Assembly (NCBI GenBank): GCA_016721505.1
Contig: JADKHX010000002.1
Span: 37,126-101,125 of the forward strand
Direction of reading: 5' to 3'
DNA: 64,000 nucleotides
Source of the DNA: Rhodocyclaceae bacterium
Lineage (GTDB): Bacteria > Pseudomonadota > Gammaproteobacteria > Burkholderiales > Rhodocyclaceae
The notes beneath the pieces are model-generated. The model saw nothing but the letters and a program-made list of their open reading frames with translations. It was not told the DNA's origin and made no database searches. This document shows positions 9,769-64,000 of this stretch, one piece after another (within the stretch, counting starts at the first letter, position 1; each line of letters opens with the position of its first letter). Position numbers and translations under genes: made by a program.

Positions 9769-9863
9769 AACGGCGGCGAAGCAGGGGTTTCGCAAAGCAT
9801 TGCTCTGTGCCTGCGTAGCGGGTAGTCCGTACACAGCCGACACTGCACACCAGCACCAACTAG
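9769..9863 (+). repeat. 95-nt long-form repeat element, copy A
   Basis: AACGGCGGCGAAGCAGGGGTTTCGCAAAGCATTGCTCTGTGCC...CACCAGCACCAACTAG. Aligns by eye over its full length with copies at 11109 and 50968. Ends in the 13-nt core. Confidence 0.8.
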
Positions 9864-11108: not shown

Positions 11109-11203
11109 AACGGTGGCGAATCAGGGATTTCGCAAAGCATTGCTTTGCGCTTGTGTAGCGGTTCGGCTGCACTAAGTCGAGGCTCCACCCCGGCACCAAT
11201 TGG
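11109..11203 (+). repeat. 95-nt long-form repeat element, copy B
   Basis: AACGGTGGCGAATCAGGGATTTCGCAAAGCATTGCTTTGCGC...CGGCACCAATTGG. Same orientation as copy A. Contains the perfect 9-bp inverted repeat CGCAAAGCA-T-TGCTTTGCG. Confidence 0.8.
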
Positions 11204-11269: not shown

Positions 11270-12934
11270 ATGATTGCACTGCTCGAAGCGAAACGCGCTG
11301 GACTTTTTGTGCGCGCGCATCTCGCCAACAACCTCGTCGCTGGACTCGTCGTCGGCGTGGTGGCACTGCCTTTGGCAATGGCGTTTGCGATTGCTAGTGG
11401 GGCAAAACCCGAGCAAGGAATCTATACCGCGATTGTCGCTGGATTTCTCGGCGCGGCTTTCGGTGGCAGTCGCCTGCAAATTTCCGGGCCGACTGGCGCT
11501 TTCATTGTCATCCTCGCCGCAATTACCGCGCGGCATGGCATTGACGGTTTGCAAATCGCCACACTGATGGCCGGACTGATGTTGCTGGCGCTGGGTGCGG
11601 CACGGCTCGGTACCGTCATCAAATACATTCCGCATCCCGTCATCATCGGCTTTACCAGCGGTATCGCGGTGATTATTTGGGTCGGGCAGTGGAAGGATTT
11701 TTTTGGTTTGCATGCTGCGCCGAACGCGGCACATTTCCACGATAAGTTGGCAAGTTTATTGGTTGCCTTGCCCGATTTTCATCTAGCTACGACTTCGCTC
11801 GCGTTGCTGGCGCTGCTGCTCACGATTTACAGCCCGAAGTTGTTCAAGCATATTCCGGGACCGCTGGTGGCAATGGTGGTCATCACCGTTATTCAGTCTG
11901 CTTTTCAATTCCCTAATGTCGCCACTATCGCCAGTGCGTTTGGTGGTATTCCGCAAGCGTTGCCGACCTTCCACGTGCCGCAGGTGTCAGCGGCAGAACT
12001 GGTGCAATTGATCGGCCCGGCGTTCACTATCGCTTTGCTCGGCGCGATTGAATCTTTGTTGTCTGCAGTAGTGGCCGATGGGATGGCTAGCGGATTGGCT
12101 AACGGTACAAGCGCAACACGCCACGATCCGAATCAGGAATTGATTGGGCAGGGTATCGCCAATATCGCCGCGCCGCTATTTGGTGGCTTCGCCGCGACCG
12201 GCGCGATTGCGCGCACAGCGACCAATGTGCGCAATGGCGCGACCAGTCCACTCGCCGGAATTACCCACGCGGTTTTCTTAGTATTCGTGGTGTTGCTTTG
12301 CGCGCCGTTGGCGGATCACATTCCATTGTGTGCGCTCTCTGCCATCTTGTTCGTAGTCGCATGGAATATGGCTGAGCTGCATCATTTTTGGCACCTCGCA
12401 CGCACGGCGCCGCGAAGTGATGTGATTATCTTACTCATCACGTTTGGCTTAACGGTGCTGACTGACATCGTCATCGCGGTCAATGTCGGCGTGATTTTGT
12501 CTTCACTGATTTTCATGCGACGAATGGCGCAAGCAGTGGAGATTCAGGATGAAACAAGTGAGCATGAATGGTTGATGCCGCCGAGCGAATCCGATGGGCA
12601 AAGGATGATTTACAGTATTGACGGGCCGTTCTTTTTTGGTGCGGCGGAGAAGCTGCAATCCACGTTGGCTAGCGCGCAACAACATGTCGAAGCGGTAGTT
12701 TTACGCTTGGGGCGCGTGCCGTTTATTGATGCGTCCGGTCTTGAAGCATTGAGTGAATTGGTTAGTAATTTTCAAGCGGCGCACACCCATGTCGCGCTAT
12801 GTGAAGTGCGGGCGAATGTGCTGAGCAAAATAGTTCGCAGTGGTATTGCCGATAAAGTCGGTCGAGAAAATATTCACGACTCATTGAGTGACTGGATTGT
12901 CGCTAGCACACCCAAAAATACGCCGATAATTTAA
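11270..12934 (+). CDS. SulP family anion permease with C-terminal STAS domain
   Basis: About 554 aa from ATG 11270 (MIALLEAKRAG). Multi-TM core followed by a soluble STAS-like tail. The longer track ORF starts inside repeat copy B. Confidence 0.85.
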   Translation: MIALLEAKRAGLFVRAHLANNLVAGLVVGVVALPLAMAFAIASGAKPEQGIYTAIVAGFLGAAFGGSRLQISGPTGAFIVILAAITARHGIDGLQIATLMAGLMLLALGAARLGTVIKYIPHPVIIGFTSGIAVIIWVGQWKDFFGLHAAPNAAHFHDKLASLLVALPDFHLATTSLALLALLLTIYSPKLFKHIPGPLVAMVVITVIQSAFQFPNVATIASAFGGIPQALPTFHVPQVSAAELVQLIGPAFTIALLGAIESLLSAVVADGMASGLANGTSATRHDPNQELIGQGIANIAAPLFGGFAATGAIARTATNVRNGATSPLAGITHAVFLVFVVLLCAPLADHIPLCALSAILFVVAWNMAELHHFWHLARTAPRSDVIILLITFGLTVLTDIVIAVNVGVILSSLIFMRRMAQAVEIQDETSEHEWLMPPSESDGQRMIYSIDGPFFFGAAEKLQSTLASAQQHVEAVVLRLGRVPFIDASGLEALSELVSNFQAAHTHVALCEVRANVLSKIVRSGIADKVGRENIHDSLSDWIVASTPKNTPII

Positions 12935-13521
12935 TTGCCGTCGAGTAGCCGCTTGAGATCCTGAGCGATTAGCGGCGCTGTATCTTCATGCTTGAGATAC
13001 AAACGCAGTTTGCCTTTGGCATCGATTACGTAGCTGCCCGACGAGTGGTCCATGGTGTAGCTACCGGGTGTCGTGCCGGGACTTTTCTGGTAAAAAATTT
13101 TGAAATCTTTGGCGACCGCAGCGGTGGCATTCGCATCACCAAAAACACCAAGAAATGAGGGATGAAAAGCCGGAACATATTGCGACAACAAAGCTTGCGT
13201 GTCGCGTTCTGGGTCGATGGTCATAAATACGACTTGAACCTTTTCACCGTCCGTTCCAAGCAAACTCATCACTTCGCGCATCTTGGTCAACACGGTCGGA
13301 CAGACATCTGGGCATTGAGTGTAGCCAAAGAAAATCACTACCACTTTGCCTTGAAAATCGCTGAGTTTGCGTGGCTTGCCGGTGTGATCGGTCAACGTTT
13401 GGGCCAGACCGGTGCTGCCAATTTCGGTGCCCGTGAGATCGGTGGAATTGAACGCGGGGGGCTTGCCACATGCAAACAAAAGGACGGTTGCCAGCAAGGC
13501 AGTCCAACGCAGGACACGCAT
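12931..13521 (-). CDS. SCO1/SenC copper chaperone (lipoprotein)
   Basis: 196 aa. LLFAC lipobox and the CPDVCPT CxxxC motif. Last gene of the aa3 assembly cluster. Confidence 0.9.
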   Translation of the reverse strand: MRVLRWTALLATVLLFACGKPPAFNSTDLTGTEIGSTGLAQTLTDHTGKPRKLSDFQGKVVVIFFGYTQCPDVCPTVLTKMREVMSLLGTDGEKVQVVFMTIDPERDTQALLSQYVPAFHPSFLGVFGDANATAAVAKDFKIFYQKSPGTTPGSYTMDHSSGSYVIDAKGKLRLYLKHEDTAPLIAQDLKRLLDGN

Positions 13522-13525
13522 GGAG

Positions 13526-14422
13526 TTAGACCGGAATGTAATGATCGATTAGCAAGGCGGCGAACAATAACGCCAGATACATAATCGACCAACGAAAACT
13601 TTTCTTCGCCACTTCGTCGCTGTACTGTCGCCACACCATCCATGCGTAGGCCAAAAACACCGCATCCAGAATCACCACGCTGACGAGGTAAAACCAACCC
13701 GCCATGCCAATGACAAATGGCACCAAAGTCACCAAGCTCAAGCCGACGGTATAGAGAAACACATGTCGTCGCGTGTACTCGGCGCCGTGGGTCACCGGCA
13801 ACATTGGAATGCCTGCTGCGGCATACTCTTGCGTTCGATACAGCGCCAAACTCCAAAAGTGCGGCGGCGTCCACACAAAAATAATCAGAAACAACATCCA
13901 CGCCTCGCCCGGGGTGGTGCCCGTAACGGCGGCCCAACCAAGCACTGGCGGCATTGCACCAGAAGCGCCGCCAATGACGATGTTTTGCGATGTATTAGGT
14001 TTGAGAAACACCGTGTAGATAATGGCATAACCGACGAAGGTGGCCAGCGTAAGCCACATGGTGTATGGGTTGACGAAAACATTCAACAACCAAAGCCCAA
14101 GACCACCGATGAGCACTGAGAGTGCTAATGTTTCTGTGGCATTGACCTGCCCAAGCGGCAACGGTCGTCCACGAGTGCGCGCCATTACGGCATCGATCTT
14201 TTGTTCAATCAGGCAATTCATCGCTGCCGCCGCGCCCGCCACCAATGCAATGCCAAGCGTCGCGAACAGGAGAATTCGCCACGGCACCATGGCAGGTGTG
14301 GCGAGAAACATGCCAATCACTGCGCAAAACACAATCAGCGAATTGACCCGTGGCTTGGTCAGCTGAAAGTACTGATGCAGTCGATTGGTTGTGCTTTGGA
14401 GTGTGAGCGCGAGAGCTTTCAA
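13526..14422 (-). CDS. ctaB: protoheme IX farnesyltransferase (heme O synthase)
   Basis: 298 aa UbiA-type polytopic protein adjacent to SCO1. The apparent start is TTG; there is no in-frame ATG near the N-terminus. Confidence 0.9.
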
Positions 14423-14574: not shown

Positions 14575-15924
14575 ATGAACGACTATCGAATTGAGATTCC
14601 CGACGGTGCGCCAAAACAACTTACGCGCGCTTGGTTAAGCCTTGGCATTGCAGCGTTAATTGGCGCTGGTTTGTTGGCAATTTTGCTGGTGCTCTCCCGC
14701 ACGCCCGGTGTGCAGGATGTGTTCCCACTGCGTGATTTTTTCAAATCGGCTTTGGTCGTACACGTTGACCTATCCGTGTTGATTTGGTTCATGGCGTTTG
14801 CCAGCGCGATGTGGAGTTTGGTCGGCGGTGAACGACTCGCCGCGCTCGGGCGAGTTGGCTTTGGTTTGGCTGCGATAGGCACGGCAATTATTGCGCTCTC
14901 GCCATTTTTTCCCGATGCCAATCCGCTGCTCAATAACTACATTCCGGTGTTGCAACAACCGATATTTTTTGGCGGGCTGCTGGTCGCTGGGGTGGGGTTT
15001 TCCTTGACGATTTTGCGGGCATTATTAACGATTAAGTTCGGCTCGCCAGTTGGTGCTGACCACACGCCGTCGACGCATTCATTTGCAATCTACCTCTCTG
15101 CGATTGCCGGCGCGGTCTCACTCAGCAGTGTTTTTTTTACCCTGCTCAAAGCGCCTGATTTAGACGGTAAAGCTTACTGGGAAGCAGTGTTTTGGGGCGG
15201 TGGTCATGCCTTGCAGTTTCAGCACACGCTTTTGATGGTCGTGGCGTGGTTTGGCTTGGCCAAGGAGTTAGGTTCACCACCGAAAATACAGTCGCGTGCA
15301 ACAATGATCTTGTTTGCGCTGGCCGCCTCACCGCTGCTAGCAGTGCCAATAATTTTTGCGGTGGCCGACGTCGGGTCAGCGTGGCATGTCGCGTATTTCG
15401 CGCGCTTGATGGAATTTGGTCACCCATTGATGCTGCCGCTGATTATTGTTGCGGCAGCGACCCTGTGGCCGATCCGTAAAATCAGCGCGCCAGCCAAGTC
15501 AGCATTGTTTGCTTCGGTGTTTTTGTTCGCCACCGGTGGCGTTTTGGCCTATCTCATCAAAGGCGTGAACGTTGTGATTCCCGCGCATTACCACGGCTCA
15601 ATTGTCGGCGTTACGCTAGCATTTATGGGCATGGCCTATGTGCTGTTGCCGCGCCTCGGATTTGCGCTAGCCGACGGGAAAATGGCGCGCTGGCAGCCCT
15701 ACGTCTATGGCGGCGGCCAGTTGATTCACATTCTCGGACTAGCTTGGTCGGGTGGCTATGGAGTGCAACGAAAGGTTGCCGGAGCTGAGCAAGTACTCAC
15801 CACGCTGCCGCAAAAAATCGGCATGGGCATGATGGGCATCGGCGGACTGATATCCATCATCGGCGGCATTATGTTTGTGGTGGTTTGCCTCGTCGCCATG
15901 CGCCGACGGCAGATTAAAACTTGA
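14575..15924 (+). CDS. orphan heme-copper-oxidase subunit-I-like membrane protein (divergent)
   Basis: 449 aa, about 12 hydrophobic segments. His-containing motifs parallel the 565-aa oxidase at 60187: VHVDLSVLIWF vs AHGIDMLIFWI, WGGGHALQFQ vs WAFGHSSQQ, IPAHYHGS vs VPGHFHAT. Only one His (FGHP) is present where HH is expected. The family call rests on by-eye similarity only. Confidence 0.5.
   Translation: MNDYRIEIPDGAPKQLTRAWLSLGIAALIGAGLLAILLVLSRTPGVQDVFPLRDFFKSALVVHVDLSVLIWFMAFASAMWSLVGGERLAALGRVGFGLAAIGTAIIALSPFFPDANPLLNNYIPVLQQPIFFGGLLVAGVGFSLTILRALLTIKFGSPVGADHTPSTHSFAIYLSAIAGAVSLSSVFFTLLKAPDLDGKAYWEAVFWGGGHALQFQHTLLMVVAWFGLAKELGSPPKIQSRATMILFALAASPLLAVPIIFAVADVGSAWHVAYFARLMEFGHPLMLPLIIVAAATLWPIRKISAPAKSALFASVFLFATGGVLAYLIKGVNVVIPAHYHGSIVGVTLAFMGMAYVLLPRLGFALADGKMARWQPYVYGGGQLIHILGLAWSGGYGVQRKVAGAEQVLTTLPQKIGMGMMGIGGLISIIGGIMFVVVCLVAMRRRQIKT
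15045..15071 (-). repeat. 27-nt motif copy inside the orphan oxidase-like gene
   Basis: The reverse complement is ACGGCGTGTGGTCAGCACCAACTGGCG, identical to the copy at 63690..63716. Read as SPVGADHTP. Confidence 0.75.
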
Positions 15925-16483
15925 TCAAGCGCCCAACTTCTTTGATAAATTTCATGGGCTCGGGATTGTCGCTGTAACGCATCACAATTTGCCCCCGCCG
16001 GTCGACCAAATGAATGTAACGCGGCGAGGCTTTGATACCGCCTAGGCCAATCACGCTTTCGACCGCTAGTGGTCGTGCGAGCATTAAATCGGGATGCGCG
16101 GCGAGTAGTTCGGCGGCGGGTTCAGTAGCATCAGTAATCACCCACAGGCGCTCCAAGCGCATACTGCCTTTGCCTTGTGCCGTGCGTGATTGCCGTGTCA
16201 AATACAAAGCTTGCTGGCAGGCATTGTCGCAAGCGCCAGGCGCGGCATAGACCATCATCCAACCGTCAGTGACTGCCTCGTGAACGAGCGGCTTGCCCTT
16301 GGTATCGAGCAATTGTTCATAGGGAAATGCTTGCGGCGTTACCACTTCGCCCAAACTTGGTACGGTTGGCAATGTCCATACATAACGAAACATCAACGCC
16401 GCCGCCAGTGGCAACAAACAGATTGCTGCGATTATCAATATGACGCGTTGACCGCGGCGCAGTCCGTGACTCGGTTTATTCAT
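15914..16483 (-). CDS. membrane-anchored thioredoxin-fold-like protein of the oxidase assembly cluster
   Basis: ATG 16483 overlaps the SURF1 stop (ATGA). One N-terminal TM and a GACDNAC CxxxC motif. Function is inferred from context only. Confidence 0.6.
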   Translation of the reverse strand: MNKPSHGLRRGQRVILIIAAICLLPLAAALMFRYVWTLPTVPSLGEVVTPQAFPYEQLLDTKGKPLVHEAVTDGWMMVYAAPGACDNACQQALYLTRQSRTAQGKGSMRLERLWVITDATEPAAELLAAHPDLMLARPLAVESVIGLGGIKASPRYIHLVDRRGQIVMRYSDNPEPMKFIKEVGRLIKF

Positions 16484-17211
16484 TGGTGTTTCCATAACAT
16501 CCATCCGTAAACTCCTGCCATTATCGAAAATATGAACCACATGAGCGCGTACCCGATGTGGTGCAACGCTGGATGCACCGGGCTAGTCCATTCGCGCGCC
16601 AAGCCATCGTCCGTTGCACTGGTTTGCAGCAACATTAGTGGCAACACTTTCAGTTCCGCGTTCAAACCAGATTCTCTCGTGTAATCATCCTCGCGCACGT
16701 GCTGCCACACCCGCCCAGACGGTGGTTCGGCTTTGAGCTCGAACACCCGTTGCTCGAAATGACGTAACACTCCACCCAATTCCAAAGTCGTATCAGTGGT
16801 GACGACGTTAGGCAATTCACTGCGTAGTCGCGGTGCGAGCACCCAACCACGATTGACCAATATTACCGATTTACTTGCCTCAAGTTGAAACGGCGTCAGC
16901 ACGTGATAACCCACCCAACGATTACGCAATTTGTTATCGAGAAAGATAGTCTTATCGGCTAACCATCTGCCCTTCAGCGAAACTTGATGCAAATCCAAAT
17001 CAAGGAAGTCCGCGGCGGTTTGTGATGTCAAAGTGTTCAAAGAAATCGGCGCGGCGGTTTGGGCGGCGAGCATTTGCTCATAACGTTCGGTCTTGACGCT
17101 AGCGCGATAGATCTGGAAAACGCTCATGCCAAGACACACTGACACCGCCAGCAAAATCATGGCATTTCGCAAAAGCTTGCGCTGTGGAGGTTTGACAGGC
17201 GGGGCGTTCAT
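16480..17211 (-). CDS. SURF1 family cytochrome oxidase assembly protein
   Basis: Two-TM SURF1 topology (N- and C-terminal helices flanking a large periplasmic loop) in a cox-cluster context. Start taken at ATG 17211 (MNAPPVKPP), because the longer track ORF would overlap the divergent gene. Confidence 0.8.
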   Translation of the reverse strand: MNAPPVKPPQRKLLRNAMILLAVSVCLGMSVFQIYRASVKTERYEQMLAAQTAAPISLNTLTSQTAADFLDLDLHQVSLKGRWLADKTIFLDNKLRNRWVGYHVLTPFQLEASKSVILVNRGWVLAPRLRSELPNVVTTDTTLELGGVLRHFEQRVFELKAEPPSGRVWQHVREDDYTRESGLNAELKVLPLMLLQTSATDDGLAREWTSPVHPALHHIGYALMWFIFSIMAGVYGWMLWKHQ

Positions 17212-17268
17212 GGTGGAATCAATTAGACTGCACAGCTTAATGCTTGGCAGTGATGGAGAATGATTTTG

Positions 17269-17466
17269 ATGCGCGTGATTGTGATTGTGCTGTTGCTGGC
17301 GATTGTGTTCAACATGGGTCGGGCGCTGATGTTCATTTTTCGCAACCAAGGGCGCGAGCGAGAACGTGGTGTACGCGCCCTCACGATACGAGTTGGGCTA
17401 TCGGTTGCCGTAGTTGTGCTTCTGGTGGTCGGCAATCAATTGGGTTGGATCAGCGGCAAACTCTAA
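17269..17466 (+). CDS. twin-transmembrane-helix small protein (DUF2909-like)
   Basis: About 65 aa, two TM helices separated by RNQGRERERG. Sits in the conserved divergent position next to SURF1. ATG 17269 has better GGAGA spacing than ATG 17260. Confidence 0.65.
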   Translation: MRVIVIVLLLAIVFNMGRALMFIFRNQGRERERGVRALTIRVGLSVAVVVLLVVGNQLGWISGKL

Positions 17467-17487
17467 TTGCCTTGATCTAATCAAATG

Positions 17488-17514
17488 GTCAGTTGGTGCT
17501 GGCCACACGCCGTT
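17488..17514 (-). repeat. 27-nt motif copy, intergenic
   Basis: GTCAGTTGGTGCTGGCCACACGCCGTT, between DUF2909 and ctaE. Confidence 0.75.
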
Positions 17515-17566
17515 GAGCGTTGAAAACAGAAGGGCAGGCTAAATTTATCGCCTGCCCTGGTAAGCG

Positions 17567-18433
17567 TTACAGCCAATAAACGACGACGAATAGTCCCAGC
17601 CAAACGACGTCAACAAAGTGCCAATACCAAGCCACCGCCTCAAAAGCGAAATGGCGTTCCGCGGTGAAGTGACCCTTCATGCTACGAATCAAAATCACAA
17701 TCAACATCGTTGCGCCGAGCGTGACGTGGAAGCCGTGAAAACCAGTGAGCATAAAAAAGGTTGAACCATAGACCCCGGTGGTCATTTTCAGATTCAGGTG
17801 GTTATAGGCTTCATAGTATTCGTAGGCTTGGAATCCAATAAACGTCAGACCCAATGCAATGGTCAGGAACAGACCCAAAACCAACTGTTTGCGTTTGCCA
17901 GCCAGCATGCCCCAATGCGCCCAGGTCAGCGTTGCGCCAGAGCTCAGCAGCAATATCGTGTTTAGCAGGGGAATGCCTGTGGCATGCATGGCATGGAATT
18001 CGGTTTTTGCTGCCTCGGCCGCAGGACCGGCGGTCGGCCACGTTCCAACGAATCCGGCAAATCCGCTGTATAACTGCTGCGCTGAGCTTGCGAGTTCCGG
18101 CACTGAGAGCACACGAATGTAAAACAGCGAGCCGAAGAAGGCGGCGAAAAACATTACCTCAGAGAAAATAAACCAGCCCATCGACCAACGGAAAGATTGG
18201 TCGACTTGGAGGTTGTAGTTACCGCCTTCGGACTCATCAATCACGCTGCCAAACCAGCCGAAAAGCATATAGAACAGCACAGCGAAGCCGGCCAGTAAGA
18301 CAAATCCGCCATTGGCAATGGAGTTCATGGTCAACACGGCACCGCTTGCCATGAGCAACAAAGCAAGCGATCCGACCATGGGCCAGAGCGAAGGTTGTGG
18401 AATGAAATAACGCGAGGCGGATGGATTGCTCAT
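17567..18433 (-). CDS. ctaE: cytochrome c oxidase subunit III
   Basis: 288 aa, 7-TM. Conserved C-terminal HFVDVVWLGLFVVVYW. Confidence 0.93.
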   Translation of the reverse strand: MSNPSASRYFIPQPSLWPMVGSLALLLMASGAVLTMNSIANGGFVLLAGFAVLFYMLFGWFGSVIDESEGGNYNLQVDQSFRWSMGWFIFSEVMFFAAFFGSLFYIRVLSVPELASSAQQLYSGFAGFVGTWPTAGPAAEAAKTEFHAMHATGIPLLNTILLLSSGATLTWAHWGMLAGKRKQLVLGLFLTIALGLTFIGFQAYEYYEAYNHLNLKMTTGVYGSTFFMLTGFHGFHVTLGATMLIVILIRSMKGHFTAERHFAFEAVAWYWHFVDVVWLGLFVVVYWL

Positions 18434-18492
18434 GCTTAGCTCCTTAAAAATATTTTCAACAAATGCTTGTTAATTTTGTGACTGAACTGCGC

Positions 18493-18705
18493 TCATTTGC
18501 CCACCACCAAAGTTGCGATAGTGACCATCGTGGCGACAAATATCAGCATAAACACTACGGCGGCAATTATTAGATGCACTGGCGACAGTGAAGGCGCGTC
18601 CTGTGCGTGGGCGGCGCGGCCGCGAAGTCCGACCATTCCGGAGCCAACGGTTCGCAGCACGCGCCAAAGGCTTGATACCGCTTGTGGTTCGGGAGTCGTT
18701 TTCAC
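18493..18705 (-). CDS. small membrane protein (DUF2970-like)
   Basis: 70 aa with a single C-terminal TM. Sits in the conserved slot between ctaG and ctaE. Confidence 0.6.
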   Translation of the reverse strand: MKTTPEPQAVSSLWRVLRTVGSGMVGLRGRAAHAQDAPSLSPVHLIIAAVVFMLIFVATMVTIATLVVGK

Positions 18706-18717
18706 GCATCTGCTTTC

Positions 18718-19302
18718 TTAGATTCCTGACCCACTGGTGCTAGCGCCATTGGCAGCAGACCCAGTGTTGTTACTACTGCCAACGCCGCCAGGGACTTCAA
18801 AAAATGTGTAGGACAAAGTGACCGTGCCGATGTCGCTCGGCAGGTTGCGATCCAGTGCGAATACCACCGGCATCACACGCACTTCGCCTGGGGCAAACAC
18901 TTGCTGACGGAAGCAAAAACAATCGAGCTTCTTGACAAAATTCGCTGCATGTTTCGGCCCATAGCTCGGTACCGCTTGTCCGGTAATCGAGTGGTTGCTC
19001 AAATTTTCCACGCGAAAATTAACTTGTACAAGTTCGCCAGTATGCATTGGCAGAGAGGTTTGCAACGCGGTAAAGCGTAGGCCGGTTCCGTGCGTGTTGG
19101 CATCGAACTCCATCGTGATCGGACGACCGACAGTCGCTGAGGCACGAAATTCATCCGCCTTTTGCACATCGTATATTCCCGTCCATTCGCAAAACGCACG
19201 ATACAGCGGTGGCTGTATGTAGGCGAACAAAAAACTAGCGATTGCCACCAGACCTAAGCCACTGGCAATTCGATAGTTGGTTACGGGAATGGCTGTCATC
19301 AT
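18718..19302 (-). CDS. ctaG: cytochrome c oxidase assembly protein Cox11
   Basis: 194 aa. N-terminal TM and the Cox11 CFCF copper motif (KLDCFCFRQQ). Confidence 0.92.
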   Translation of the reverse strand: MMTAIPVTNYRIASGLGLVAIASFLFAYIQPPLYRAFCEWTGIYDVQKADEFRASATVGRPITMEFDANTHGTGLRFTALQTSLPMHTGELVQVNFRVENLSNHSITGQAVPSYGPKHAANFVKKLDCFCFRQQVFAPGEVRVMPVVFALDRNLPSDIGTVTLSYTFFEVPGGVGSSNNTGSAANGASTSGSGI

Positions 19303-19311
19303 GCAATACGC

Positions 19312-19455
19312 TTATGCGCCGCCGCTGACCCACTGGCGGATGATCACTGTGACGAACACGGCACTCGCAAACAACGCGAGAAGAATCCCAACCCGGCGAT
19401 TATTCCTGCGCTGTGTGTCAAGGTCGTTAGTGTTCTCCACGGCATTTGCACTCAT
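19312..19455 (-). CDS. small single-TM protein between ctaD and ctaG (oxidase small assembly protein-like)
   Basis: Below the track's size cutoff. My translation is MSANAVENTNDLDTQRRNNRRVGILLALFASAVFVTVIIRQWVSGGA*. Its ATG overlaps the ctaD stop (TAATG). Confidence 0.55.
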   Translation of the reverse strand: MSANAVENTNDLDTQRRNNRRVGILLALFASAVFVTVIIRQWVSGGA

Positions 19456-21080
19456 TAGTGCGCAGCCGCCAAATGCTCTTCAGTAATCACTGGGGGATCT
19501 TCGAAGGTGTGATATGGCACGGGTGATGGCAGCGTCCATTCCAATCCAGTTGCGCCGTCCCATGGTTTGACCGGCGCAGCTTCGCCACCTTTGATGTTTT
19601 TCAGCACGACCCAGAGGAAAATCAATTGGCTGAAGCCGAAGCCGAATGCGCCAATGGATGACACCGCATTGAAATCGGTAAATTGGGTTGCGTAGTCGGG
19701 TATCCGACGCGGCATTCCGGCCAAACCGAGGAAATGCTGCGGGAAAAATGCCACATTGAAAAACACGATCGAAGTCCAGAAATGTACTTTGCCGAGCGCT
19801 TCGTCATACATGCGCCCAGTCCATTTTGGCAGCCAAAAATACGCACCGGCATACGCCGAAAACAACGCGCCAGCCACCATCACATAGTGAAAATGCGCCA
19901 CCACGTAGTAGGTGTCTTGCAATTGGATATCCACCGCCGTGATCGCCAGAACCAATCCCGTCAAGCCGCCAACGGTGAATAAGAACAAGAATCCAAGGGC
20001 AAATAGCATTGGCGTTTCAAAAGTCAGTTCGCCGCGCCACATGGTGGTGATCCAGTTGAAAACTTTGACGCCCGTTGGCACTGCAATTAACAGCGTGGCG
20101 TACATGAAATACAGCTGGCCAGTCAGCGGAATACCGGTGACATACATGTGATGCGCCCAGACAAAAAATGAAATCAGTCCGATCGCGGCAATTGCGTAGA
20201 CCATTGAAGTGTAGCCAAACAAATGCTTGCGCGAGAACGCCGGGATTACGTGCGAAACCACCCCAAATGCAGGTAGCGCGATGATGTACACCTCGGGGTG
20301 ACCGAAGAACCAAAAAATGTGCTGGAACAGCACAGGGTCGCCACCGCCAGCGGCGTTAAAGAAGCTCGTGCCGAAATGACGATCAGTAAGCAGCATGGTG
20401 ACTGCACCGGCCAATATCGGCATCGACGCAATTAGTAGAAACGCCGTGACCAACCAGGTCCAGCAGAACATCGGCATGCGCATTAGTGTCATGCCCGGTG
20501 CGCGCATATTCAAGATCGTGGTAATGATGTTGATCGAACCCATGATCGATGACATACCCAAAATATGCACGGCGAAAATCGCCATGTCCATACCCAAGCC
20601 CATTTGAACTGACAGCGGTGGGTAAAGTGTCCATCCCGTGCCAGCGGCACCGCCTGGAACAAAAAGCGAACCTGTGAGCAAAATCGCGGCAGGCGGGAGC
20701 AACCAGAAACTCCAGTTGTTCATCCGCGCAAACGCCATATCTGGCGCGCCAACCATCATTGGAATCATCCAGTTAGCAAAGCCAACGAAGGCCGGCATGA
20801 TCGCGCCAAACACCATGATCAGCGCATGCAAGGTAAGCATTTGGTTGTAGAACTCAGGGGATACGTACTGCAAACCTGGCGCAAAAAGTTCGCCACGGAT
20901 GACCAGCGACATTGCGCCGCCAACCAAAAACATGACAAAGCTGAACCACAAATACATGGTGCCAATATCTTTGTGATTGGTAGTGGTAAACCAACCCATG
21001 AGGCCAGGCGCGCGACCGTGATGGGCGTGGTCGCCATGATCACCGTGGGCATGATCGTGTGTGTCGTGACTTGCTTGCAT
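19455..21080 (-). CDS. ctaD: cytochrome c oxidase subunit I (A-family)
   Basis: 541 aa. WFFGHPEVY (CuB His plus cross-link Tyr), an HH pair and VVAHFHYV. Confidence 0.97.
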   Translation of the reverse strand: MQASHDTHDHAHGDHGDHAHHGRAPGLMGWFTTTNHKDIGTMYLWFSFVMFLVGGAMSLVIRGELFAPGLQYVSPEFYNQMLTLHALIMVFGAIMPAFVGFANWMIPMMVGAPDMAFARMNNWSFWLLPPAAILLTGSLFVPGGAAGTGWTLYPPLSVQMGLGMDMAIFAVHILGMSSIMGSINIITTILNMRAPGMTLMRMPMFCWTWLVTAFLLIASMPILAGAVTMLLTDRHFGTSFFNAAGGGDPVLFQHIFWFFGHPEVYIIALPAFGVVSHVIPAFSRKHLFGYTSMVYAIAAIGLISFFVWAHHMYVTGIPLTGQLYFMYATLLIAVPTGVKVFNWITTMWRGELTFETPMLFALGFLFLFTVGGLTGLVLAITAVDIQLQDTYYVVAHFHYVMVAGALFSAYAGAYFWLPKWTGRMYDEALGKVHFWTSIVFFNVAFFPQHFLGLAGMPRRIPDYATQFTDFNAVSSIGAFGFGFSQLIFLWVVLKNIKGGEAAPVKPWDGATGLEWTLPSPVPYHTFEDPPVITEEHLAAAH

Positions 21081-21132
21081 ATTCAGATACTCCTAGTTGC
21101 GTAGTGCGTCAGGTTCATTGCTGTTCAACAAA

Positions 21133-22293
21133 TTATTTGCCGCGAAGCGCTTTGACTTCGGCTGGTTGAATAACATCATTCAGCTTGTTGCTCCAAGCAT
21201 TGCGCTCGTAAGCAACCACAGACGCTATGTCTGCGTCATTGAGTTGAGCGCCGAATGCCGCCATCGCAGTGCCAGGCTTGCCATTAATAACAATAGCGAG
21301 ATGTCTTTCTTTGGGCCCCTTAACAATTGCTGAGCCATCGAGCGCGGGGAACGCCGGCGGCACACCTTTGCCCGTCGGTTGGTGACAACCGGCACAATTG
21401 GTTGTGTAAACCTTTTCACCACGTTTCACCAACTCGTCGAGCGTGAATACTTTGTTCGGATCATCTGCCGCCGCAGCCATTTCTTTTTGTTGCGCGGCTA
21501 CCCATTCGGCGTACTTGGCTTCTGACACCACATCGACCACGATAGGCATAAAACCGTGATCTTTGCCGCACAGTTCGGAGCACTGACCACGATAAGTACC
21601 TTCTTTATCGGCCTTGAACCATGCATCGCGCACAAAGCCCGGCACCGCATCGGTCTTGACGGCAAAAGCAGGCACCGACCAGTTGTGGATGACGTCGGTA
21701 GCTGTTGTCAAGATGCGGACTTTCTTGTTAACCGGTACGACAAGGTGACGATCAACTTCAAGCAAATAGTTCTCGCCCTTGGCTTCTTTGTTTTCGATTT
21801 GCGCGCGCGGGGTCGAGAGTACGCTGATGAACTTGATTCCGGTTGCATCACCACTCATGTATTCGTAGCCCCATTTCCACTGATAGCCCGTGACTTTAAT
21901 GGTCATATCGGCTTTGGAAGTGTCGCGTTGATTAACCAGCGCAATCGTGGCGGGAACGGCGATAGCAACCAATATCACAGCGGGAATCAATGTCCACAAA
22001 ATTTCAACCGTGAGATTGTCGTGAAAGTCTGCCGCTTTGTGACCGCGCTTGCGCGTATGCATCACCAGCGAATAGCCCAAAACACCAAACACCCCAACGA
22101 AAATAATCGTGACGAAAATCGTCAGGAATGTATGCAAATCGTAAATGCGCCGCGCTAAATCTGTGACCGGCTCTTGCAGATTGAGCTTCCATTCGGCTTG
22201 CGCTACACCAGCGAAAATCGCCAGCGAACCAGCCAACAGCACAGTAAGCACGGTTTTCAATCCGGCGAACTGGTTGGATGTATCTTTCGTCAT
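21133..22293 (-). CDS. ctaC: cytochrome c oxidase subunit II with fused C-terminal cytochrome c domain
   Basis: CuA site CSELCGKDHGFM plus CAGCHQ heme c motif. Start at ATG 22293 (MTKDTSNQ), preceded by a GGGAGA RBS. Confidence 0.93.
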   Translation of the reverse strand: MTKDTSNQFAGLKTVLTVLLAGSLAIFAGVAQAEWKLNLQEPVTDLARRIYDLHTFLTIFVTIIFVGVFGVLGYSLVMHTRKRGHKAADFHDNLTVEILWTLIPAVILVAIAVPATIALVNQRDTSKADMTIKVTGYQWKWGYEYMSGDATGIKFISVLSTPRAQIENKEAKGENYLLEVDRHLVVPVNKKVRILTTATDVIHNWSVPAFAVKTDAVPGFVRDAWFKADKEGTYRGQCSELCGKDHGFMPIVVDVVSEAKYAEWVAAQQKEMAAAADDPNKVFTLDELVKRGEKVYTTNCAGCHQPTGKGVPPAFPALDGSAIVKGPKERHLAIVINGKPGTAMAAFGAQLNDADIASVVAYERNAWSNKLNDVIQPAEVKALRGK

Positions 22294-22463
22294 TATTTCT
22301 CCCGGACTTGGAACCAAAACTTGTACTTTGTAAGGCTGCACTAGCGCGCAAGTACGTCACAAAAACTGAGTTTTGTGAAAAACTCGCTGCATGCCACTAT
22401 GTTCAACGCCGCGAAGGTTAACACGGCGCACCCCATCGCTGCAAAAATTTTGCGATGCACTTG

Positions 22464-53321: not shown

Positions 53322-53335
53322 TTGATATCAGTCAA
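53322..53335. promoter_or_regulatory. FNR/Dnr-like box upstream of nirJ
   Basis: TTGAT-ATCA-GTCAA. It overlaps the first ATG offered by the ORF track. Confidence 0.6.
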
Positions 53336-53370
53336 TGCGCGCCCCTAACAGTTTGGGGTCCAATGACCCC

Positions 53371-59480: not shown

Positions 59481-60020
59481 ATGAGCGCAATTCTCCCGCC
59501 CGCAGAACGACTTTGGTGGAAACATCCCCTCGACCGCGTCGAAGGCACCTGGATCGTGATCGCCTTTATCTGGTGCATGATCATGTTCGCCATGATGGTC
59601 GGCTGGCACATTTACGGTAAGCAAAATCTCTCCACCGAAACCTACAAAACCACGCCGGAACTGTTCAGCAAGAAGGCACAGGATGTGGTCGACAAGTACA
59701 CGGTGCGCAAAGAGACCGATAAGGAAATTCCGGTGGTACATCCGCCTCCAGGCAGTGATGTCTATCTCGTTGCACGGCTATGGGATTGGTGGCCGATCAT
59801 CGAACTGGAAAAAGACAAAACCTATAAGCTCCATTTGACCTCGATGGACTTCAACCACGGCTTTTCACTGCAGCCGGTGAACATCAACATTCAAGTCGTG
59901 CCGGGTTACGAGCATGTGGTCAAAGTGACACCGAATCAGTCGGGTACTTTTTCCATCGTCTGCAACGAATTCTGCGGCATCGGCCACGCCAATATGGCCG
60001 GCCGAATTTACGTTAAGTGA
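59481..60020 (+). CDS. heme-copper oxidase subunit II, one TM plus cupredoxin with a complete CuA site
   Basis: 179 aa. H-x34-CNEFCGIGHANM fits H...CxExCx3Hx2M exactly. Confidence 0.88.
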   Translation: MSAILPPAERLWWKHPLDRVEGTWIVIAFIWCMIMFAMMVGWHIYGKQNLSTETYKTTPELFSKKAQDVVDKYTVRKETDKEIPVVHPPPGSDVYLVARLWDWWPIIELEKDKTYKLHLTSMDFNHGFSLQPVNINIQVVPGYEHVVKVTPNQSGTFSIVCNEFCGIGHANMAGRIYVK

Positions 60021-60107
60021 GGGAGTTGATCGTGAAACTACGCGCCAACAATGATCCGATTTATTTCGGCCAAAACCCACAAGCCCTTGTAGCCCACCCA
60101 TCCCCTG

Positions 60108-60127
60108 CCCTTCCCTCGAGGGAAGGG
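60108..60127. repeat. perfect 20-nt palindrome between subunits II and I
   Basis: CCCTTCCCTCGAGGGAAGGG, checked base by base. Confidence 0.9.
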
Positions 60128-60186
60128 AGTTCTTCGGCTCGCTCCGCTCGAACCTTACGGGGTGGTTTGCAAATGGAGATTTCACT

Positions 60187-61884
60187 ATGAGCACAACCTA
60201 TCGAACCTGTCCGCGTTCCGGACTGCAATTTGAGGCACAGGCCGAGCGCCTGATGTTGGTCAACGCTGTTGCCGCTGTCGTATTTTTGTTAGTGGGTGGC
60301 ATCCTTGCTGTCGGTGTGGTGCTCACCCGCTGGCCGGCTGTGCATTGGCTGTCAGCCGATGCGTTTTACATGGTGCTGACCGCACACGGCATCGACATGC
60401 TGATCTTCTGGATCATCTTCTTCGAGATGGCGGTGCTGTATTTCTGTTCATCAACGCTACTGCGTTGTCGAATCGCCACGCCGCGAATGGCATGGCTCGG
60501 TTTCGCGCTGATGCTGATCGGCGCGGTCACCAACAACGTCGCCGTGTTCCGTGGCAGCTCCAGCGTGATGATGACTTCCTACGTGCCGATGATGGCCGAG
60601 CCGGCGTTTTATCTGGGTCTGATTTTGTTCGCCGTCGGCGCATTGATCGGATGTTTCGTTTTCCTTGGCACGCTGGTCGTTGCCAAGCGCGAAAAGACTT
60701 ATCAAGGCTCGATTCCGCTGGTGACTTTTGGCGCGGTGACGGCGACCATCATCGCGGTGTTCACCATCACTTCCGGCGCGATCATTTTGATCCCGACTTT
60801 CTTGATGTCGGTTGGTGTCATCAACCAAGTTGACCCCTTGGTGTACCGCACTATTTGGTGGGCCTTCGGTCACTCGTCGCAGCAGATCAACGTCGCTGCG
60901 CACATCTCGATCTGGTACGCCATCGCCGCAATTTGCTTCGGTGCCAAGCCAATGTCCGAGCGGGTCAGTCGCGGTGCCTTCCTGCTCTACATTTTGTTTT
61001 TGCAACTCGCCAGCGCGCACCATTTGCTGGCCGATCCGGGCATGAGCACGGAATGGAAAGTGGTCAACACCAGTTACTTCATGTACTTCGCCGTGTTGGC
61101 CTCAATGATTCACGGCCTGACCATTCCCGGCGCTATCGAAGTCGCGCAACGTGAAAAGGGTTACACCAAAGGTCTGTTCGAGTGGCTGCGCAAAGCACCA
61201 TGGGGCAATCCGGTTTTCTCCGGCATGTTCATTTCGCTAATCGGTTTCGGCTTCCTCGGCGGGATCTCCGGCGTGATGATGGGAACGGAACAACTGAACA
61301 TGTTGATCCACAACACCATCTACGTTCCCGGCCACTTCCACGCCACGGTTGTCGTCGGCACCACGCTGTCGTTCATGGCGCTGACCTATTTCCTGATTCC
61401 GGTCTTGTTCAAGCGCGAAATGATCAACCCCGGCCTGGCCAAATTGCAGCCGTATATGTTCGGTCTGTCGATGTACTTCTTCTGTCTGGTGATGATGGGC
61501 GCCGGCACGCTGGGCGTATCGCGGCGGCATTGGGATATGGCCATGGGCGGCTCGCCACTGGCCTATGAATTCCCCGGCGCGGCTTACTTGATGATGGGCT
61601 TGGTCGGCATCGCTGGCATCGCCGCGATTCTTGGCGGCGCGATCTACATCTACATCACCGTCGGCTCACTGTTGTGGGGCAAGAAACTGGATGCCGGTGT
61701 ACAAACTACACAGACGATTCCGTTGCCAAAAACTCCGATGCCAAACGTCGTTGTTCAAAGTCACGGCTCAGCAGGCTTCGCCGCACCGGGCACCTTTGCC
61801 TTGGCCATGGTGTTCCTGATTTCCTTCGTCCTGTACTACTTCATCAATTGGAAGTATTTGTCGCAGGTCTGGGGTTTGAGTTAA
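60187..61884 (+). CDS. heme-copper oxidase subunit I, B-family-like, lacking the cross-link Tyr (candidate NO reductase, sNOR/eNOR-like)
   Basis: 565 aa. Heme His in LTAHGIDM. CuB His in WWAFGHSSQQ, with Gln where Tyr is expected at +4. HH in ASAHHLL and HFH in VPGHFHAT. GGAGA RBS. Confidence 0.85.
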   Translation: MSTTYRTCPRSGLQFEAQAERLMLVNAVAAVVFLLVGGILAVGVVLTRWPAVHWLSADAFYMVLTAHGIDMLIFWIIFFEMAVLYFCSSTLLRCRIATPRMAWLGFALMLIGAVTNNVAVFRGSSSVMMTSYVPMMAEPAFYLGLILFAVGALIGCFVFLGTLVVAKREKTYQGSIPLVTFGAVTATIIAVFTITSGAIILIPTFLMSVGVINQVDPLVYRTIWWAFGHSSQQINVAAHISIWYAIAAICFGAKPMSERVSRGAFLLYILFLQLASAHHLLADPGMSTEWKVVNTSYFMYFAVLASMIHGLTIPGAIEVAQREKGYTKGLFEWLRKAPWGNPVFSGMFISLIGFGFLGGISGVMMGTEQLNMLIHNTIYVPGHFHATVVVGTTLSFMALTYFLIPVLFKREMINPGLAKLQPYMFGLSMYFFCLVMMGAGTLGVSRRHWDMAMGGSPLAYEFPGAAYLMMGLVGIAGIAAILGGAIYIYITVGSLLWGKKLDAGVQTTQTIPLPKTPMPNVVVQSHGSAGFAAPGTFALAMVFLISFVLYYFINWKYLSQVWGLS

Positions 61885-61894
61885 TCGCGACAGC

Positions 61895-62824
61895 ATGCCG
61901 GGAAATGCGTTCAGGAGTCATGCCGACATGAATCAGGCTCAAATCGCCAGTCGCGGGTTCACAAAAACCGCACGCGACGTGCTGAGCCTGTTCAAGCTGC
62001 GCATCGGCTTCATCATCATGCTCACCGCTTTGGCAGGCTATGCGATCACGCCGGGCGGCAATATCGGTGCGCTTCAACTCACGGTGCTTGCGCTCGCCGT
62101 TTTGGTTTCGTCAGCCAGCGCCGGTGCCTTCAATCAATACATCGAATGTGAGGAAGACAAGCTGATGGCGCGCACCCGCACGCGGGCGTTTGTCACCGGT
62201 GCTTTGCCGCACACACCGGCGTGGCTGGTGCTGATTGTGGCGATGCTGGTCGGCTCTGTCGCGGCGGCGTGGTATGTGAGCAATGCCGCAGCGGCGTTCT
62301 ACACTTTCCTCGGCGCGTTCTTCTACGCCATCGTTTATACGGTTTGGCTAAAGCGTCGCAGTTGGCTGAACATCGTTGTCGGCGGCCTCGCGGGTAGCTT
62401 CGCCGTGCTCGCCGGTGCGGCGGCGGTCAATCCGGTTTTAGGTGCAGAGCCAGTATTGCTGGCGCTGGTTTTGTTCCTGTGGACGCCACCACATTTTTGG
62501 AGCCTGGCAATCGCCAATCGTGCCGAATACGCCGCTGCCAATGTTCCGATGTTGCCTGTTGTGGTTGGCGATGTGCGCGCCGCGCAAATCGTTTTTTACA
62601 GCACCGTTGCCTTGGTTTTGGTTTCGCTGATTGCGCCGATCATTGCCAACGCACCAATCCACTTTGCCGGTGCGCTGATCGGCGGCGGATACTTCCTGCG
62701 CAAGTCCTGGCAGCTGGCACAAAACCCGAATCGCAAAACCGCAATGGCCTCGTTCTTCGCCTCATTGCTGCAACTTTCGCTGCTGCTGGTTGCAGCCATG
62801 GTGGACGTCTGGGTATTGCGATGA
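61895..62824 (+). CDS. ctaB: protoheme IX farnesyltransferase, second copy
   Basis: 309 aa UbiA-type protein, paralogous to 13526..14422 (shared [12 protein letters not shown]). An alternative start is ATG 61928. Confidence 0.88.
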   Translation: MPGNAFRSHADMNQAQIASRGFTKTARDVLSLFKLRIGFIIMLTALAGYAITPGGNIGALQLTVLALAVLVSSASAGAFNQYIECEEDKLMARTRTRAFVTGALPHTPAWLVLIVAMLVGSVAAAWYVSNAAAAFYTFLGAFFYAIVYTVWLKRRSWLNIVVGGLAGSFAVLAGAAAVNPVLGAEPVLLALVLFLWTPPHFWSLAIANRAEYAAANVPMLPVVVGDVRAAQIVFYSTVALVLVSLIAPIIANAPIHFAGALIGGGYFLRKSWQLAQNPNRKTAMASFFASLLQLSLLLVAAMVDVWVLR

Positions 62825-63669
62825 AAGCTCGTCGCCTGTTGGTCGGGCGTTTGGTCGTGCTATGGCTGGCGATGTGCAGCGGCTCCACCCTCGCGCAGGA
62901 CACCAACACCGCAGCAGCAAGTTCCCCCGGCCTTGACCAAAACCTCGCGCTGAAACTCAGCCACGAAGCACTTGGCCGCACCATCGGCGAACATGCCCTG
63001 CTCGACCGCGAAGGTCGCCCGGTCCGCCTTGCTGATTTTCGTGGCAAGCCGCTGCTGGTGAGCTTTATCTACACCGGCTGTTTTCAAGTCTGCCCCGCCA
63101 CTACCAAGCTGTTGCAAAAGGCTGTACGCGACGCGCAGGAAACTTTGGGCACCAACAATTTCCGCGTCATCAGCATCGGCTTCAATCAGCCCGCCGACTC
63201 ACCGCAAGCGCTCAAATCCTATGCACGGCAATACGGCATCACCGAACCCAATTGGGAATTCTTGAGCCCCTCCGCCGCCAGCGTGGCCGATCTCGCGCGC
63301 GACTTTGGCTTCAGTTACGTCCCGACCGCCGCCGGTTTTGATCACGTCCTGCAAGTCACCGTGGTCGACGCCGACAGCAAGATTTACCGTCAGGTTTATG
63401 GCGACCAATTCACGCCCGAGCAGCTCACCGAACCATTGCGCCAACTGATCAACCGTGCGCCAATCAGCGACACCACCAACTTCGCCGATCTGGTCGAACG
63501 TGTGCGCATCCTTTGCTCGGTGTACGACCCGCTCACCGGCAAATACAAAGTCAGTTACGGCCTCGCATTTGAAATCGCTGGTGGTGTGACTTTTTTGATT
63601 TGGATACTTTGGTTTTTCGGCAACGAATGGTGGACGCGGCGGCGGCACACACGTCAGTTGCGCGCCTGA
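62821..63669 (+). CDS. SCO1/SenC copper chaperone, second copy, with C-terminal TM
   Basis: ATG 62821 overlaps the ctaB stop (ATGA). Signal peptide and CFQVCPATT CxxxC motif. The longer track ORF is read-through. Confidence 0.88.
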   Translation: MKARRLLVGRLVVLWLAMCSGSTLAQDTNTAAASSPGLDQNLALKLSHEALGRTIGEHALLDREGRPVRLADFRGKPLLVSFIYTGCFQVCPATTKLLQKAVRDAQETLGTNNFRVISIGFNQPADSPQALKSYARQYGITEPNWEFLSPSAASVADLARDFGFSYVPTAAGFDHVLQVTVVDADSKIYRQVYGDQFTPEQLTEPLRQLINRAPISDTTNFADLVERVRILCSVYDPLTGKYKVSYGLAFEIAGGVTFLIWILWFFGNEWWTRRRHTRQLRA

Positions 63670-64000
63670 TGAGTTCGATATCTGCCGACACGGCGTGTGG
63701 TCAGCACCAACTGGCGAGTGAAAGCCTCGGCAGCAAAATCTGCCGCAAGCTCGATCACCAGTTCGATACCGTTTTCGGCGCAGCGGCCAACCCGTGGCGA
63801 CACCTCGGCGCGCTTGGCTTTCTATTCCTCTGGATCGTCGTTGTCAGTGGCATCTACGTCTACATCATGTTCGACACCTCAGTTGCCGGCGCCTACGAAT
63901 CGATTGAATCGCTATCGCGCGAACAACCGCTGTTCGGCGGCCTGTTGCGCAGCCTGCATCGCTACGCATCGGACGCGTTCCTGATCGTCACGCTGTTGCA
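63669..64000 (+). CDS. cytochrome b-like membrane protein (partial; continues past the right edge)
   Basis: Not in the track because it is edge-truncated. ATG 63669 overlaps the SCO1 stop. My translation is MSSISADTACGQHQLASESLGSKICRKLDHQFDTVFGAAANPWRHLGALGFLFLWIVVVSGIYVYIMFD...SLHRYASDAFLIVTLL. Confidence 0.6.
   Translation, partial: MSSISADTACGQHQLASESLGSKICRKLDHQFDTVFGAAANPWRHLGALGFLFLWIVVVSGIYVYIMFDTSVAGAYESIESLSREQPLFGGLLRSLHRYASDAFLIVTLL
63690..63716 (+). repeat. 27-nt motif copy at the 5' end of the cytochrome b-like gene
   Basis: ACGGCGTGTGGTCAGCACCAACTGGCG, identical to the reverse complement of 15045..15071. Confidence 0.75.

Follow-up and report, generated by a model that had tools for sequence, protein, structure and literature searches.

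A predicted heme-only paralogue of oxidase subunit I beside ctaB in a Rhodocyclaceae genome, and its possible place in the maturation of heme-A enzymes

What is a protein resembling subunit I of a heme-copper oxidase (HCO) doing among genes for oxidase assembly, on the strand opposite to theirs and with no subunit II at its side? The question is raised by a 449-amino-acid (aa) open reading frame (ORF), here called X, which begins with ATG and occupies 14575..15924 (+ strand) of a 64,000-nt stretch of a Rhodocyclaceae genome (GCA_016721505.1, contig JADKHX010000002.1; the whole stretch is referred to as the window). A first-pass annotation, made from the letters of the window, had delimited this ORF correctly, between ctaB and a PA0111-like thioredoxin-fold gene that both lie on the – strand, and had described its product as an orphan, truncated subunit I in the place of heme A synthase (CtaA/Cox15). 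According to the analysis reported here X is, with high probability, a complete subunit-I paralogue with 12 transmembrane (TM) helices, predicted to bind heme only, which belongs to a distinct and old clade on the B-family/eNOR side of the superfamily (eNOR being a nitric oxide, NO, reductase) and from which most ligands of the CuB/FeB site have gone. That such a paralogue acts as an accessory or maturation factor is the best overall explanation, to which we give about an even chance.

Fold and ligands of the subunit-I paralogue

Membership of the superfamily is supported by sequence and by predicted structure. X matches the Pfam COX1 model (PF00115) at 46.5 bits, above the gathering cutoff of 34.8, over profile positions 3–421 of 436, and a whole-genome scan agrees. 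Similarity to the 565-aa subunit I encoded at 60187, previously noticed by eye, is real and extends over the full length (BLASTP, 24% identity, E 9e-21); the three motif pairs on which that impression was based are aligned to each other in the BLASTP alignment. BLASTP of X against the aa3 CoxA gave no significant match, and a scan against NCBIfam matched no model. An AlphaFold2 (AF2) model built on a 51-sequence alignment (pLDDT 90.1, pTM 0.92) contains 12 long helices, that is, the full HCO core. Of the 75 PDB matches that Foldseek found at E≤0.001, 50 are listed, and every one of these is a subunit I chain (TMq 0.64–0.78); TM scores to the subunit I structures of ba3, bo3 and aa3 oxidases are ~0.77. 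The best solved relatives by both profile and fold are the B-family subunits I of Thermus thermophilus ba3 and Aquifex (1EHK, 3S8F, 7DEG): a single-sequence phmmer search of the PDB gave nothing meaningful, and B-family oxidases (7DEG, T. thermophilus ba3) were reached by the family profile only, at E ~1e-16. Because the COX1 coverage, the full-length BLASTP alignment, the 12-helix model, the Foldseek matches and the family profile all agree, X is a complete minimal core and not, as first thought, a truncation.

Ligand positions were assigned from pairwise alignment with the 565-aa protein, from the family alignment and from alignment with ba3; conservation was counted over 157 diverse members of the X family.

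14761..14763, + strand: codon of H63, helix II, equivalent of a low-spin heme ligand; aligned to the ba3 helix-II His and the eNOR 'TAHG' His; His in 156/157
15205..15207, + strand: codon of H211, helix VI, the sole kept CuB-type His; 157/157
15328..15333, + strand: codons of S252-P253, site of the lost helix-VII CuB 'HH' pair, from the alignments
15586..15594, + strand: codons of H338-Y339-H340, helix-X ligands of the high-spin and low-spin hemes, aligned to ba3 'GHFH'; H338 155/157, Y339 153/157, H340 154/157
15769..15774, + strand: codons of R399-K400, equivalent of the heme-propionate-binding Arg pair, aligned to ba3 'PRR' and eNOR 'SRR'; R 152/157, K 153/157

Exactly four His columns are near-invariant across the family: H63, H211, H338 and H340. 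By alignment X thus has both the bis-His pair of a low-spin heme (H63, H340) and the proximal His of a high-spin heme (H338), each in at least 154 of the 157 members, and its heme-ligand and propionate-binding positions correspond one to one with those of ba3. Judged from these residues, X should still hold two hemes, one low-spin between H63 and H340 and one high-spin on H338, with the propionates at R399-K400.

The metal site is another matter. Of the three His that bind CuB or FeB, only H211 is present. The eNOR segment 'SAHHLL' aligns to 'AASPLL' in X, and ba3 'FHHQ' falls on non-His positions of the profile; in relatives of X the S252-P253 columns hold hydrophobic residues or Pro. No HH occurs in the helix-VII region of 155/157 members, and in the other two it stands at the end of the segment. 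The earlier description of an HH pair reduced to GH does not survive this comparison, since the pair aligns to S252-P253, while H283 is a different position that is not conserved across the family. Gln follows H211 at +3 (Q214, Q in 156/157); position 215, at +4, which in A-, B- and C-family O2 reductases is the site of the cross-linked active-site Tyr, is Phe here (F in 127/157, Y in 11/157). X has no counterpart of ba3 H282, H283 or Y237 and does not conserve the K-path residues. With two of the three CuB/FeB His and the cross-link Tyr lost, X cannot form a binuclear centre. On sequence grounds it is very probably not an oxidase of any known O2- or NO-reducing kind.

These losses are not accompanied by general decay. 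Y122 and W207 are present in 157/157 members, M279 in 154/157 and E203 in 146/157, and conserved loops (SRTP, NNYIPV, GVQRK) lie on the periplasmic side. Near-invariance of the His and of other residues over 157 members points to purifying selection on X, and not to decay. For changes to the otherwise universal three-His site there is a precedent in gNOR, in which one active-site His is replaced and which, according to Murali et al. 2024, is the first HCO family with altered ligands (PMC11214002). However, gNOR changes a single ligand (His to Asp) and keeps both the binuclear site and subunit II, whereas X loses two ligands. X lies outside the HCO families defined by Murali et al. 2024.

Relatives of X, their neighbourhoods and the eNOR operon

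X is one of a large family: 1441 clusters at 50% identity are found with E≤1e-3, and 581 with E≤1e-30, mostly of 435–475 aa, in Beta- and Gammaproteobacteria, Nitrospirae and metagenome-assembled genomes (MAGs) of Deltaproteobacteria. Members are automatically named 'cbb3-type cytochrome c oxidase subunit I' at NCBI. The gene neighbourhoods of 105 X loci were surveyed:

53/105 loci: eNOR operon
22/105 loci: A-type oxidase cluster (beside ctaB, ctaA, sco or trx)
21/105 loci: ctaB, ctaA, sco, TlpA-like or cytochrome b (cyt-b) genes alone nearby
9/105 loci: nothing recognisable

The usual order of the eNOR type is eNOR subunit II, eNOR subunit I, ctaB, sco, cyt-b, p167 (a 167-aa protein described below) and X, all in one direction, with X typically last; in Rhodocyclaceae X stands tail-to-tail at the end of the operon. 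Coupling of X to TlpA was seen at eight loci. The first-pass description of X as an orphan holds for the window locus, where no subunit II lies beside it, and fails for the family, whose members normally lie inside an oxidase or NO reductase gene cluster.

The same association extends to distant relatives. Deltaproteobacterial MAGs whose X is ~35% identical have eNOR II, eNOR I, a 44-aa ORF, X, CtaB (overlapping by 4 nt) and Sco; their eNOR I has the GHSSQQ and EHH motifs of the window's protein, and a cyt-b/FeS/FlpD gene lies alongside. The 44-aa ORF between eNOR I and X (L015, 7797–7931) corresponds to the extra C-terminal helix of eNOR I and is conserved in sequence with the C-terminus of the window's 565-aa protein. 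Elsewhere (L009–L011, 10091–14849, and in the published operon of F. straubiae) a cytochrome b is fused to Fer2, FAD-binding and NAD-binding domains and stands beside the cyt-b/Fer4/FlpD protein; this fusion would connect cytoplasmic NAD(P)H to membrane hemes.

X itself also occurs in fusions. Two sequences of 761 aa join a cyt-b TM domain, of the operon partner's family, to X; seven sequences, in four clusters from three sources, extend X by a thirteenth TM helix and a CcmH/CycH-like TPR domain that is periplasmic by topology; and one record, on a 5.6-kb contig and hence weak evidence, joins X to UbiA/CtaB.

In a tree of X, eNOR, A-type and C-type sequences, all X sequences form one clade (100/100), which has a long stem and does not fall within eNOR; X and eNOR together are split from A and C (100/98), and the division of X into Delta and Beta/Gamma branches mirrors one inside eNOR. 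As the tree covers these four groups only, it does not establish that X is sister to eNOR specifically.

The locus in the window is laid out as follows.

12931..13521, – strand: SCO1/SenC copper chaperone (PF02630, 149 bits)
13526..14422, – strand: ctaB, heme O synthase of the aa3 cluster (TIGR01473, 316 bits)
14575..15924, + strand: X, 12-TM HCO subunit-I paralogue (ORF, Pfam COX1, AF2, Foldseek)
15914..16540, – strand: PA0111-like membrane thioredoxin-fold protein (NF058629, E 2.7e-9, under the cutoff of that model)
16480..22341, – strand: remaining A-type (aa3) cluster, with SURF1, COX3, Cox11, COX1 and COX2 (ORFs and Pfam)

ctaB and X are divergent across a 152-nt spacer, in which a scan for sigma-70 promoters found none and terminator-like matches were below the expectation from shuffled sequence; the scan is uninformative. 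The 3' ends of X and the PA0111-like gene overlap tail-to-tail by 11 nt. An identical overlap is found at a relative locus (L006, X 73% identical), where the neighbour carries PF26971 and SURF1, COX3, Cox11, COX1 and COX2 follow in the same order as in the window. The closest relatives, in Sterolibacteriaceae MAGs (X 67–69% identical), have exactly the arrangement of the window.

The 565-aa protein belongs to a second system in the window. At the position of the cross-linked Tyr, Gln is diagnostic of eNOR and Asn of sNOR (Table A4 of PMC8756737); since this protein has Gln there (GHSSQQ), it is eNOR subunit I. It also has an intact three-His site and a CuA subunit II encoded upstream. That the 'other oxidase' of the first-pass annotation is an eNOR-type NO reductase, and that the X family is usually the last gene of its operon, had been missed. 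An assignment to sNOR, prompted by the norSY-senC-orf1 literature, was ruled out by the same residue (Gln, not Asn).

59481..64000, + strand, continuing past the window end (contig 1 of this genome, 96606–102879): eNOR operon
59481–60020, + strand: eNOR subunit II (CuA)
60187–61884, + strand: eNOR subunit I, 565 aa, GHSSQQ
61895–62824, + strand: CtaB of the eNOR operon
62821–63669, + strand: Sco of the eNOR operon
from ~63600, + strand, beyond the window end: cyt-b/2×[4Fe-4S]/FlpD protein
after the cyt-b/FeS gene, beyond the window (with that gene, contig 1 100725–102879): p167, a 167-aa single-TM protein without a Pfam match

Automatic annotation would name this operon cytochrome c oxidase. 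The operon is complete; heme d1/nir-type genes and NnrS (53335–57319) stand a short way upstream of it, and a second cyt-b paralogue is present on contig 1 at 118503–120455.

eNOR subunit I is the closest paralogue of X in this genome and usually its operon-mate, and an enzyme of this type has been characterised from R. marinus (PMC11214002). The two share the 12-TM core, the heme ligands and the Gln at +3 from the helix-VI His, and they group together against the A- and C-type proteins. They differ in that X is without the HH pair, has Phe rather than the Gln of eNOR at the Tyr (+4) position, has Glu in place of a conserved Arg eight residues before the helix-VI His, is without a partner subunit II (none is adjacent) and without the extra C-terminal helix, and forms a separate clade on a long stem. 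X is thus not itself an eNOR subunit I.

The eNOR operon of the window is without X at its end, where most relatives have it; X is instead ~45 kb away. In this genome the X gene has presumably left the eNOR operon; it stands beside the ctaB of the aa3 cluster, and the single CtaA lies elsewhere.

What is very likely a family member has already been given a label by specialists, who call gene 2878407321 of F. straubiae an 'eNOR scaffold protein of unknown function' (bioRxiv 10.64898/2026.01.22.701106). In the same source this gene is a 'hypothetical protein' in IMG and K02274 (COX subunit I) in KEGG; it follows Sco, a cyt-b/FeS protein and a hypothetical protein in the eNOR operon; its normalised transcripts are 73–387 in microoxic and denitrifying autotrophic growth and 0 in heterotrophic growth; and its proteome signal is 28.0, against 31.6 for eNOR I/II. 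Gene order and the KEGG call make it very likely that this gene is the orthologue of X. A COX1-like ORF distal in the eNOR operon, after Sco and cyt-b/FeS, describes 53 of the 105 family loci; the window copy differs in that it stands in the aa3 cluster, 45 kb from the eNOR operon. No use of the label beyond that preprint was found in the literature searched, and the oxidase-assembly reviews searched make no mention of an X-like protein.

Heme A synthase, co-occurrence and a dispersed repeat

The first-pass annotation had seen no CtaA in the window and implied that X might stand in for it. The first observation is correct for the window, and the only PF02628 match of the genome is a canonical CtaA on contig 12 (354 bits), which stands alone near an apparent cbb3-type cluster. 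X gives no signal against PF02628 (CtaA/Cox15). As to position, X does occupy the proposed slot at two aa3-type loci (L061 and L064), where it lies directly between ctaA and ctaB; it lies there together with CtaA, and replacement is unsupported. CtaA resembles X in being a heme-binding polytopic membrane protein encoded beside ctaB, but CtaA/Cox15 is of an unrelated fold and family (PF02628) and co-occurs with X, with no alternation between the two.

Co-occurrence was examined in a sample of 300 genomes of the class. X and eNOR are both present in 15 genomes; X is present and eNOR not found in nine, eNOR present and X not found in three, and neither was found in 273. CtaA is present in 23/24 X-carrying genomes, compared to 204/300 overall. 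p167 and the cyt-b/FeS protein share one set of 20 genomes, namely all 18 eNOR carriers and two fragmented assemblies, and were found in none of the nine genomes with X but without eNOR. This pattern shows that X does not substitute for CtaA and that neither eNOR nor p167 nor the cyt-b protein is tied to it obligatorily. An obligate module of X, cyt-b and p167 had been considered and is ruled out, as both partners track eNOR and were not found in the nine genomes. What is most constant around X is heme A capability together with a neighbouring oxidase-maturation gene. With respect to CtaA itself, matches to PF02628 fall into two score classes (~350–390 and ~240–290 bits); the high class adjoins eNOR operons and may be a subtype dedicated to heme As. 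Heme As occupies both heme sites of eNOR, and CtaA is often encoded in eNOR operons.

A further link had been suggested by a 27-mer shared between X and the cytochrome b-like gene of the other operon. The identity exists: 15042–15070 (29 nt, in X) is identical, inverted, to 63690–63718. It is no specific tie between the two genes, for the shared stretch belongs to a repeat found throughout the genome. Chance would give 0.21 occurrences of the 28-nt motif TCGCCAGTTGGTGCTGGTGACACGCCGT in the window; it occurs there 10 times, on both strands, at 1533, 5896, 15044, 17487, 25981, 30371, 36052, 43133, 49586 and 63689, and ~559 times in the 3.55-Mb genome (about one per 6.3 kb), with flanks that are not conserved. 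It could be a REP-like (repetitive extragenic palindromic) or uptake-signal-like sequence. In X the copy is in frame:

15042..15070, + strand: repeat copy encoding SPVGADHTPS, in the TM4–TM5 loop, cytoplasmic by HCO topology

Residues 158–161 of X have an AF2 pLDDT below 50; close relatives have SPVGAD or LPLGAD at this site, and more distant ones are without it. A family of 93-nt direct repeats of 77–83% identity (9769–9861, 11109–11201, 50968–51060) ends in CAGCACCAACT, the core of the 28-nt motif, and may be a longer element that carries the short one.

Possible functions and what they would mean

Sequence, fold and gene context, within what they can tell, support the suggestion in the first-pass annotation of a degenerate subunit-I paralogue that might serve in assembly or heme handling. 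From context only, we propose that X has an accessory or maturation role for HCO enzymes that contain heme A, with eNOR as its main client and A-type oxidases as secondary ones, and consider this a little short of an even chance. In such a role X would act between the synthesis of heme O and heme A (CtaB, CtaA) and the loading of heme, of the metal centre, or of both into the catalytic subunit. It could hold heme A or As in its two subunit-I-like pockets; alternatively, it could dock Sco, TlpA-like or PA0111-like proteins, or the cyt-b/FeS protein, on its conserved periplasmic face. Conserved periplasmic loops, together with the fusions to a periplasmic TPR domain, point to protein partners on this face.

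Several observations weigh against an accessory or maturation role. The 'scaffold' of the preprint is a bare label, given with no sequence features or distribution (bioRxiv 10.64898/2026.01.22.701106), and the place of the F. straubiae gene in the X family is deduced from gene order and the KEGG call. Three of the 18 eNOR carriers are without X and nine of the 24 X-carrying genomes are without eNOR, so that X has no single obligatory client. The surveyed loci and genomes are inter-related, and the counts describe a pattern while overstating its independence. Finally, both heme sites, the invariant distal His, Gln and Glu, and the fused or adjacent cytochrome b fit a redox enzyme or an electron-transfer subunit just as well.

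Two alternatives of that kind are live. X may be a redox-active, non-catalytic subunit that joins eNOR, the cytochrome-b/[4Fe-4S]/FlpD protein and p167 in a membrane complex or supercomplex, its two hemes relaying electrons from quinol or cytoplasmic donors to the reductase. The conserved order of cyt-b/FeS, p167 and X in eNOR operons, the two natural cyt-b–X fusions, the invariance of both heme sites and of the propionate-binding pair, and, in the F. straubiae proteome, a signal similar in size to those of the eNOR subunits are all in keeping with a relay, and for the cyt-b proteins a supercomplex has been proposed (bioRxiv 10.64898/2026.01.22.701106). Yet the cyt-b/FeS protein and p167 follow eNOR and not X, as set out above; in the genomes that have X without eNOR, and in the window, X lies among aa3 maturation genes; and eNOR has a CuA subunit for electron entry, the purified R. 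marinus enzyme being active with an artificial donor. We regard a relay as unlikely.

Alternatively, X may be an independent copper-free heme enzyme acting on a small molecule such as NO, O2 or peroxide, with a distal pocket built from H211, Q214, E203 and possibly M279, which are invariant in the distal/P-side region. As in the non-electrogenic NO reductases, no conserved N-side proton-channel residue is evident from the alignment, and X occurs in denitrifiers, with NnrS and nir genes in this very window. However, X has no electron-donating partner that goes with it everywhere, a second metal is required in every HCO chemistry yet characterised, and the genes around X are for maturation and not respiratory modules. 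The probability that X is such an enzyme is in our view low.

The two remaining explanations are effectively excluded. A non-orthologous replacement of heme A synthase beside ctaB would account for the adjacency of X to ctaB in the window and across phyla, for the one X–UbiA fusion and for the position of X between ctaA and ctaB at two loci; it is largely refuted, and very improbable, given a canonical CtaA in this genome, the enrichment of CtaA with X (the opposite of a complementary distribution), the frequent presence of CtaA in the operon of X itself, and the lack of any sequence relationship between X and PF02628. That X is what remains of a duplicated subunit I, decaying and without function, as the loss of two catalytic ligands, the missing subunit II and a repeat inside the coding sequence might suggest, is refuted by the pattern of conservation and has next to no probability: the frame is intact, the family comprises 581 clusters (E≤1e-30), heme ligands and many other residues hardly vary among the 157 members, gene order is kept across phyla, the repeat is confined to a variable loop, and RNA and protein of a very likely relative (in F. 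straubiae) have been detected.

Within the maturation role there is a more specific version, which we rate as a long shot: X and the cytochrome-b/[4Fe-4S]/FlpD protein may form a catalytic maturation platform on a subunit-I scaffold, which would bind heme O/Os or A/As in its a3-like pocket and there process it or pass it on, and which could assist the synthesis or delivery of heme A(s) where CtaA alone has too little O2 to work with. A parallel exists in nitrogen fixation: NifEN, encoded together with the nitrogenase NifDK, is a scaffold paralogue of that enzyme from which catalytic ligands have gone and which serves in the maturation of the cofactor. NifEN is of a different protein family, and the analogy is a hypothesis for X and not evidence. 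If such a platform exists, X would be the first scaffold paralogue of the NifEN kind among heme-copper oxidases, and would answer a question raised for denitrifiers that use eNOR, namely how a heme-A enzyme matures under near-anoxic conditions.

Whatever the function of X, terminal oxidases are overcounted in genomes and metagenomes when automatic annotation names it 'cytochrome c oxidase subunit I' or 'cbb3-type cytochrome c oxidase subunit I', and the neighbouring eNOR is likewise mislabelled as an oxidase. HCOs and NO reductases have a central part in aerobic respiration and in the production of N2O, and how heme and metal are loaded into bacterial subunit I is poorly understood. The X family has kept the heme pockets and discarded the catalytic metal site, and is nearly always found with eNOR or with ctaB, ctaA and sco: being widespread, with these pockets, without this site and in this context, it is a concrete candidate for a missing component of that maturation.

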